Shown here piece after piece: positions 7,307 through 8,125 of a stretch of 10,277 bases of DNA. A program made the translations under genes and the position numbers. The notes beneath the pieces are model-generated. The model did no database searches, was not told the DNA's origin, and saw only the letters and a list, made by a program, of their open reading frames with translations. This DNA is from a virus (Duplodnaviria; Heunggongvirae; Uroviricota; Caudoviricetes), in IMG/VR virus record IMGVR_UViG_2671180454_000011. The stretch is one strand, 5' to 3'. Numbering within the stretch: position 1 is the stretch's first letter; the number at the start of each line of letters is the position of its first letter.

Positions 7307-7998
7307 ATGATTTACACTAATCAGCTTCGTTACAGTGGCAAAGATGGCATCTATTTCCACTTAAGAGACAATGTAGATGCCTTCTTAACCTTATCAGCAA
7401 CTGAAAACATGGAATTTGATAGCCCTATGCAGGTGACTACACAGAACATGCAATTATGAAGGAAGCTTATTATTAACTCGTCAGGGTCAATTAGTAGAAA
7501 ACTTCATTGACACTCTGGAAAACTGGCGTGACCAGAAGCAGATTATTTCTGTTATCTGTAAAGATGGAATTAAAATTGACGATTCCATTATTACCAACTT
7601 TAAAGCCTCTAAAGATGTTACTATCTCTAACGGTCTTCGTATCCAGCTAACTTTTCAGGAAATTAACTTTAAAGCAATCGTAGGTCAAACTGATATTTCA
7701 GCAGCCACTGGCAAAACGGCTACCACAAATGACGGTGGTGTGACCAGTAAGAAGAATGCAGGTAACGTGACCACTGAACGCAATAACGCGCCTATGCTAT
7801 CGTGCAAAGAGTTAATGAATATTAGCGATGTATCCGGTTACGCTCCAGCTATCAGAAATGATATTCTCGATGCTCAGATTAAATGTAATAAGGCTTGGAA
7901 GCTGGACTATTCAGACTTAACAGAAGCTGAAAAAACCAACGTCACCAATGCTAATAGTAACGCTGGTCGAGTAGCTTCAAAGCTTAAAAAGTACTCAG
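7307..7998 (+). pseudogene. Gene of unknown function disrupted twice: a +1 frameshift between 7437 and 7459, and 3' truncation by the IS21-family insertion at about 7999
   Basis: Frame 2: ATG 7307 (AAAGGAG SD) to TGA 7457-7459 (50 aa). Frame 0 is open from 7437 through the IS junction (~188 codons in AT-rich DNA) but has no ATG/GTG/TTG before 7740, so it reads as the continuation of the upstream frame. Beyond ~7999 the frame runs into IS sequence and stops at 8051. Confidence 0.55.
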
Positions 7999-8020
7999 TG
8001 TGCAAAATGGCATCTGAATC

Positions 8021-8125
8021 GATCGCAGTTTGGCATTCGAATCGATCATGATTTGGCATCCATCTCCGATCACAGTTTGGCATCACAATCGATCACGATT
8101 TGGCATACTTCCGATCATTGATTGG
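8021..8125. repeat. Five direct repeats of GATC-N4-TTTGGCAT (last copy degenerate) with 22-24 bp spacing at the IS left end; candidate multiple transposase-binding sites
   Basis: GATC at 8021, 8044, 8068, 8091, 8113; TTTGGCAT at 8029, 8052, 8076, 8099; a sixth partial copy AAATGGCAT at 8005. Counted by hand. Multiple subterminal repeats are a known hallmark of IS21-family ends. Confidence 0.7.

Follow-up and report, generated by a model that had tools for sequence, protein, structure and literature searches.

Directly downstream of an intact tape-measure protein (TMP) gene, the window, which is the whole stretch of 10,277 nucleotides analysed here, holds a short open reading frame (ORF), a second frame that is open without a start codon, and the left part of an insertion sequence (IS). 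The question that this locus raises is what gene these pieces once formed and what broke it. We consider that they are the remains of a phage tube-initiator gene, which became a pseudogene through a 74-bp deletion and an ISSso4 insertion in a decaying, immobilised island of Shigella sonnei, and we put the probability of this reading at about 0.93. The coordinates of the features are collected in Table 1.

Table 1. Features in and around the tube-initiator pseudogene, in window coordinates.
Feature	Position	Strand	Basis or remark
Gene for 236-aa protein, named 'transposase' in public records	3930-4640		Upstream of the TMP gene
68-aa ORF	4665-4871		Between the 236-aa gene and the TMP gene
TMP gene, 726 aa, intact	4970-7150	+	Pfam TMP_3, E 2e-21; PHROG 4036, E 4e-93
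Shine-Dalgarno sequence AAGGAG	7295-7300	+	Read from the sequence; 6 nt before ATG 7307
Pseudogene, N-terminal fragment	7307-7459	+	Native codons 1-49, a Leu made by the junction, stop TGA 7457-7459 (translation, alignment)
74-bp deletion junction GCAAT/TATGA	7454-7455	.	Alignments with intact genes; coordinates rechecked
Pseudogene, C-terminal fragment	7455-8000	+	Native codons 75-256, not in frame with ATG 7307 (translation)
Target-site duplication CTCAGTG, left copy	7994-8000	.	8 bp, ACTCAGTG, with the terminal A of the IS counted
IS-encoded tail, 16 residues	8001-8051	+	Translation; boundary from alignment with O177:H21 and OkiPb01716
ISSso4 (IS21 family), left 2277 bp of the 2638-bp element	8001-10277	+	Cut by the window end
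Five terminal repeats of ~23 bp	8018-8128	+	Repeat analysis
istA	8232-9767	+	99.9% identity to ISSso4; Pfam rve and Mu-transpos_C_2
istB	from 9784	+	Incomplete in the window; IstB_IS21 match in L005

The ATG of the short frame is also annotated as the start in the E. coli homologues. The second frame is open from 7437, directly after a TGA at 7434-7436, to a TGA at 8049-8051, and the earliest ATG, GTG or TTG in it is the GTG at 7740. The original prediction had described a 50-codon frame with a good Shine-Dalgarno sequence that stops at 7459 and a different frame that is open from 7437 without a start, and both descriptions are accurate. Taken jointly, the two frames correspond base by base to one 789-bp gene of E. 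coli and to a 798-bp gene of Felixounavirus phages. The two-frame pattern is thus not a matter of chance, and on the evidence of these alignments the ORF at 7307-7459 and the start-less frame at 7437-8051 are confirmed as two parts of the same gene. An ATG at 7456, which overlaps the new stop codon as ATGA, was considered as a site of translational coupling into the C-terminal fragment and was rejected; it opens the third frame, which stops after six codons.

The break between the two frames was located by aligning the window with three intact genes, those of phage HK3, E. coli OkiPb01716 (NZ_AP042701) and E. coli O177:H21 (NZ_CP016546); the island is intact in both E. coli strains. In each of these genes the interval between GCAAT (7450-7454) and TATGAAGG (7455 onward) is longer by exactly 74 bases. 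Blastn against phage genomes gave 258 records, most of them Felixounavirus, in which the match of window 7331-7766 takes up 510 phage bases versus 436 window bases. The deletion removes two bases of codon 50 and the whole of codons 51-74, and no microhomology was found at its ends. The fused reading is CAA TTA TGA, in which the stop codon is created by the junction itself. When the 74 bases are put back, an ORF of 262 aa results. Judged by these alignments, the frame break is a clean 74-bp deletion and not a one-base indel. The prediction of a +1 frameshift within 7437-7459 was therefore right about the interval, as the break lies at 7454/7455, but not about the kind of lesion.

The restored 262-aa protein matches the Pfam family Dit_like (PF21821) at residues 30-146 with 72.2 bits (cut-off 24.2; E 5e-20) and PHROG 3721 with an E-value of 1e-129. 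By phmmer it matches PDB 9ndy_A, the 'Tube initiator protein' gp18 of phage Bas63, over residues 5-261 (E 2.3e-113). NCBIfam gave no match for the tube-initiator, 236-aa, 68-aa or Rep-like proteins. The gene lies directly downstream of the TMP gene in the window and in phage HK3 alike. The tube initiator of Bas63 is a hexamer that adapts the threefold (C3) baseplate hub to the sixfold (C6) tail tube, and it combines the fold of a tube protein with a C-terminal extension of ~100 residues that runs through the baseplate (PMC12609058). Given these matches, we regard 7307-8000 as a pseudogene whose intact form encodes a Dit-like tail tube initiator of a phage. The intact protein would sit on the baseplate hub and nucleate polymerisation of the tube around the TMP.

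The island gene and the phage genes are alike in their N-terminal ~175 residues, where the Felixounavirus genes have 90-95% protein identity and 92-93% DNA identity to the island gene. Unlike Bas63 gp18, the island gene is carried by a bacterial island instead of a phage, and between it and the TMP gene, which ends at 7150, there is a spacer of 156 bp; the corresponding phage genes abut. The window copy differs further from Bas63 gp18 in lacking codons 50-74 and in being frameshifted and split by an IS. For the C-terminal 82 aa of the island initiator, those of the intact alleles included, tblastn found no match in 50,697 phage records.

The missing 25 residues fall within the Dit_like domain, and the deletion by itself inactivates the tube-initiator gene. 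No continuous ORF in the window copy covers the whole tube-like domain, and the C-terminal fragment alone scores 33.2 bits against Dit_like, matching only profile positions 65-118 of 127. It is inferred that no functional product would be made. A different view is that the locus still yields a shortened product that is put to use, either the 50-aa peptide or a C-terminal extension translated from GTG 7740. An ORF at 7740-8051 does exist, whose putative 103-aa product would be the C-terminal extension only, and the remaining codons show a dN/dS of 0.06 against intact alleles. We nevertheless consider this very unlikely, as the tube-like domain, by which the protein is defined, is destroyed, a further IS1 lies within this stretch in some strains, and a low dN/dS is what is expected of a recent pseudogene. 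Compared with intact alleles, the codons that remain have a dN/dS of 0.06-0.07, which indicates purifying selection on the gene in intact islands and a recent inactivation in S. sonnei. The low value would also fit continued selection, but a pseudogene that is young and belongs to a young clone is expected to give it just as well.

The second lesion of the pseudogene lies at 8000/8001, where the frame passes into IS sequence to end at 8051, as had been predicted. The left end of the IS, TGCAAAATGG at 8001, begins with TG, and homology to intact E. coli genes stops at CAGTG (8000). A related IS copy in E. coli O177:H21 has the same first bases next to a different flank. The IS is 99.9% identical to annotated ISSso4 istA/istB copies on the S. 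sonnei plasmid pINV. The window is base-identical to part of L005, an NCBI chromosome assembly, in which the full IS occupies 13032-15669 (2638 bp). Its right end in L005, outside the window, reads ...GAATACGCA/CTCAGTG/AAC CCT AAC AAA AAA TAC TAA; in other words, ...ACGCA is followed by CTCAGTG and then by AACCCTAACAAAAAATACTAA. The TG...CA termini are thus both present, the left one in the window and the right one in L005. The insertion point is after codon 256 of 262. In the open frame NPNKKY is replaced by 16 IS-encoded residues, and the last six codons and the stop (NPNKKY*) are intact directly past the right end of the IS. Because the duplication, the six codons and the stop are found beyond the IS, ISSso4 is, as judged from its junctions, a simple insertion that duplicated 7 bp of its target (8 bp with the terminal A), and the native C-terminus is displaced, not lost. 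Alignment with intact homologues and a search for a target-site duplication at the IS right end had been proposed together with the original prediction. The former located the lesion at 7454/7455, and the latter found CTCAGTG in L005; the predicted loss of the native C-terminus must be withdrawn.

If the IS had instead removed the native 3' end by an adjacent deletion, the C-terminus would truly be gone. Within the window the frame simply enters IS sequence, and in O177:H21 the related IS21-family copy lies 251 bp further downstream, both of which would suit such an event. In L005, however, the right end consists of the second CTCAGTG and the six codons with the stop, and the sequence beyond NPNKKY* runs colinearly into the 3' end of the integrase gene, so we give adjacent deletion very little chance. 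The convergent integrase gene is untouched by the simple insertion, which alone would swap only the last 6 residues of the tube initiator. As an IS21-family element, this ISSso4 has the features that the family is known for, namely the termini, the terminal repeats, istA, which encodes a DDE transposase, followed by istB, which encodes an AAA+ helper, and the direct duplication, and compared with annotated copies there is nothing unusual in it.

Another alternative is programmed ribosomal frameshifting that joins the two frames, or a gene that is naturally split here. Programmed frameshifts do occur in tail gene clusters, in the tail assembly chaperone genes that precede the TMP gene. The interval 7437-7459, however, has neither a homopolymer nor a slippery heptamer, in agreement with what had been noted before. 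Every homologue inspected in E. coli and Felixounavirus is one continuous ORF with the 74 extra bases, and the 25 residues absent from the window copy belong to the Dit_like domain. The probability of this alternative is negligible, and the frameshift is a decay mutation, as the original prediction had favoured, and not a programmed one. A sequencing or assembly error that conceals a gene intact up to the IS, which had also been allowed for, is practically excluded because the lesion is 74 bp long and no homopolymer miscount, and because the identical junction occurs in 8/8 independent assemblies, 6 of them complete chromosomes, while its ORF is indexed in 2281 blocks of a public collection.

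These assemblies are the eight loci L004-L011, all of which encode an identical TMP, and each has both the deletion junction and the left IS junction. Both lesions thus occur in all eight S. sonnei assemblies inspected. The indexed ORF is the 50-aa one made by the junction. The window copy probably belongs to the S. sonnei lineage, since its 236-aa protein is 100% identical to a protein named from S. sonnei, since two of the chromosomes have accession numbers next to those of S. sonnei pINV plasmids, and since the IS is ISSso4. In E. coli, 232 of 5426 complete genomes (~4%) carry the tube-initiator gene, and in all 60 of the 232 matching genomes that were listed it is uninterrupted and annotated as 'phage baseplate protein'. 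The 74 bp are kept in 47/47 complete E. coli genomes that were scorable at the junction, that is, where an 80-base probe spanning the junction was fully covered; in them the probe aligns as two pieces spanning 154 bases. Felixounavirus phages also keep the 74 bp. The deletion junction had no exact match among GTDB species representatives, a result that is uninformative because this set has one genome per species and S. sonnei is presumably folded into E. coli there.

The pseudogene resides in an island of ~11.5 kb with a large serine recombinase, which is inserted within the first codons of wrbA when compared with the empty site of K-12. The insertion is marked by a core repeat of ~10 bp, approximately CTGGTGCTTT, and the island brings a replacement 5' end with a start for wrbA. 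E. coli O177:H21 has the island at the same wrbA site, and a second site, between yciI and tonB, is occupied in other E. coli strains. It extends over 3270-18745 in L005, 1013-15059 in L003 and ~6600-20400 in L002, and window 1-8000 is part of it. The gene order is constant: a small resolvase, a dam methylase, a replication-initiator-like HTH protein, small ORFs, the 236-aa protein, the 68-aa protein, the TMP, the tube initiator and, convergent to these, the large serine recombinase. The recombinase has the domains Resolvase, Recombinase and Zn_ribbon_recom. The island's matches in IMG/VR were called as prophages in genomes of isolates and share its architecture, and for this reason they are uninformative on packaging. 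We found no paper on this island or on any Felixounavirus satellite.

An IS3-family element interrupts the recombinase gene in S. sonnei (outside the window, at L005 15694-18673) and leaves a C-terminal part of 414-423 aa and a resolvase-domain part of 139 aa. Because of this split the S. sonnei island is probably no longer able to excise. An additional IS1 with a 9-bp duplication is present at window 7905/7906 in L004 (12937-13713), L007, L008 and L009; it is absent from the genome of the window. The split integrase and the additional IS1 support the earlier suggestion that the element is decaying.

The HTH protein, encoded at 646-1656, matches replication-initiator families of PHROG with E-values of 1e-10 to 1e-5, and its matches to Pfam DnaD_N and HTH are below threshold. 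Its similarity to O-like and DnaD-like initiators is weak. In L005 the dam methylase and small resolvase genes are just upstream of the window. This set of genes suggests that the island may replicate autonomously once it is excised. PADLOC reported no defence-system match for any island protein.

All homologues of the 236-aa protein are close and enterobacterial, with Salmonella enterica, E. marmotae and E. albertii among the named sources. The protein has no match in Pfam, PHROG, NCBIfam or PDB and no tblastn match in the 50,697 phages, and its AlphaFold2 model consists mostly of long helices of low confidence (mean pLDDT 64). The 68-aa ORF has no match in Pfam, PHROG or NCBIfam. In BLASTP neither protein showed similarity to the tail chaperones of HK3. 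Either of them might act in interference or be a tail assembly chaperone that sequence searches fail to recognise.

Only window 4953-7766 matches phages among the 50,697 records. Of the 263 matching records, 258 belong to Felix O1-type phages of enterobacteria, which comprise Felixounavirus and its relatives. The island TMP is colinear with that of Felixounavirus HK3 at 30% protein identity. With its 726 aa it is shorter than the phage TMP of 747 aa, and tails shorter by roughly 3 nm would be expected from it. Its N-terminal 47 aa are highly similar to HK3 (74% by tblastx), and its last 10 aa, LLSSSYPEEE, are identical. In Bas63 the C-terminal region of the TMP contacts the hub (PMC12609058). 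By blastn the tube-like domain of the initiator has 92-93% DNA identity to the phage gene. The other island ORFs have no phage-structural match in Pfam, PHROG or phage tblastn. Going by these matches, the virion genes of the intact island would be limited to a mosaic tail module of two genes, which is of the Felix O1 type. The high DNA identity of the initiator domain, set against the 30% protein identity of the TMP, implies a recent exchange and suggests that recombination has recently taken place between the island and virulent phages.

Such a module recalls the PLE satellites of Vibrio, which use a large serine recombinase for integration and are parasites of the virulent myovirus ICP1 (PMC12987554). 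PLEs come with their own versions of the chaperone, the TMP and the hub protein of the baseplate (TAC-TMP-BhuB), with which chimeric tails are built (Nature 2026, PMC12987554). As recently as 2025, TMP genes in satellites were termed unprecedented (PMC12822802). The intact island resembles PLEs in being small, in having a large serine recombinase, and in carrying a TMP gene and a hub-proximal gene of a virulent-myovirus kind while other virion genes are absent; its HTH protein may be a replication initiator of its own. It differs in that no tail assembly chaperone was recognised beside its TMP gene by Pfam, PHROG or BLASTP against HK3. Its presumed partner also differs, being Felixounavirus and not ICP1, and the S. 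sonnei copy is defective.

We tentatively propose, and consider somewhat doubtful, that the islands of Escherichia, Salmonella and Shigella form an undescribed family which parasitises, or interferes with, virulent myoviruses of the Felix O1 type. The idea is based on a discrete serine-recombinase element at two att sites that has only two virion genes, both of the Felixounavirus type. It is further based on the recent exchange with the phages that the two identities imply, the phage-like termini of the TMP, the island-specific C-terminal extension of the initiator and the dN/dS of 0.06. Such islands would supply their own TMP and tube initiator, leading to PLE-like chimeric tails or to poisoned assembly of the phage tail. 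The S. sonnei copy would then be a dead member of the family, with its initiator deleted in part and split by an IS and its integrase split by an IS. The building of chimeric tails from satellite TMP and hub proteins was first demonstrated in 2026, in Vibrio PLEs. If the proposal is true, an enterobacterial counterpart would bear on phage therapy and phage typing, in which Felix O1-like phages serve.

The history of the pseudogene itself may be drawn as follows. In the S. sonnei lineage two independent lesions struck the tube-initiator gene. The 74-bp deletion at 7454/7455 cut the tube-like domain, shifted the frame and made an immediate TGA, and ISSso4, inserted after codon 256 of 262, moved the last six codons to its far side. 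With its carrier island immobilised by the split of the integrase, the copy would be a decaying remnant. Expansion of ISs and formation of pseudogenes are known in Shigella (Hawkey et al. 2020, PMC7373316). The present case is like those in that a coding sequence is interrupted by ISSso4, a type on record for S. sonnei 53G, and in that IS1 and an IS3-family element have also entered the island. It is unlike them in that the inactivating lesion is a plain 74-bp deletion. The mechanism of the lesions is ordinary, and decay of this kind is already known in S. sonnei. The pseudogene therefore matters little in itself, being another product of an IS and a deletion in a mobile-element remnant of S. 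sonnei; it matters as a pointer to an intact two-gene tail module under purifying selection.

A simple scan for promoter or terminator consensus sequences in 6900-8300 found none. The spacer between the TMP gene and the pseudogene has two inverted repeats, 7152-7174 / 7204-7226 and 7243-7258 / 7277-7292. The latter is just upstream of the Shine-Dalgarno sequence and is kept in the E. coli islands, and it may be a regulatory hairpin.

The target duplications of the chromosomal ISSso4 (7993-8000, ACTCAGTG) and the pINV ISSso4 (ACTCAGGC, L012 601-608 and 3246-3253) are very similar, and this is why the megablast match to pINV begins at 7993 and not at 8001. The related IS21-family copy of E. coli O177:H21 has CTCCC at its target. 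The similarity may reflect a preference for CTC(AG) as target. IS21-family elements (ISEc12 and ISSso4-like) of several unrelated E. coli strains are found in or beside the 3' part of the integrase gene at differing exact sites, for example at L002 17822-20124 and L003 10955-13590, and the integrase 3' end of the island may be a preferred target of IS21-family elements.
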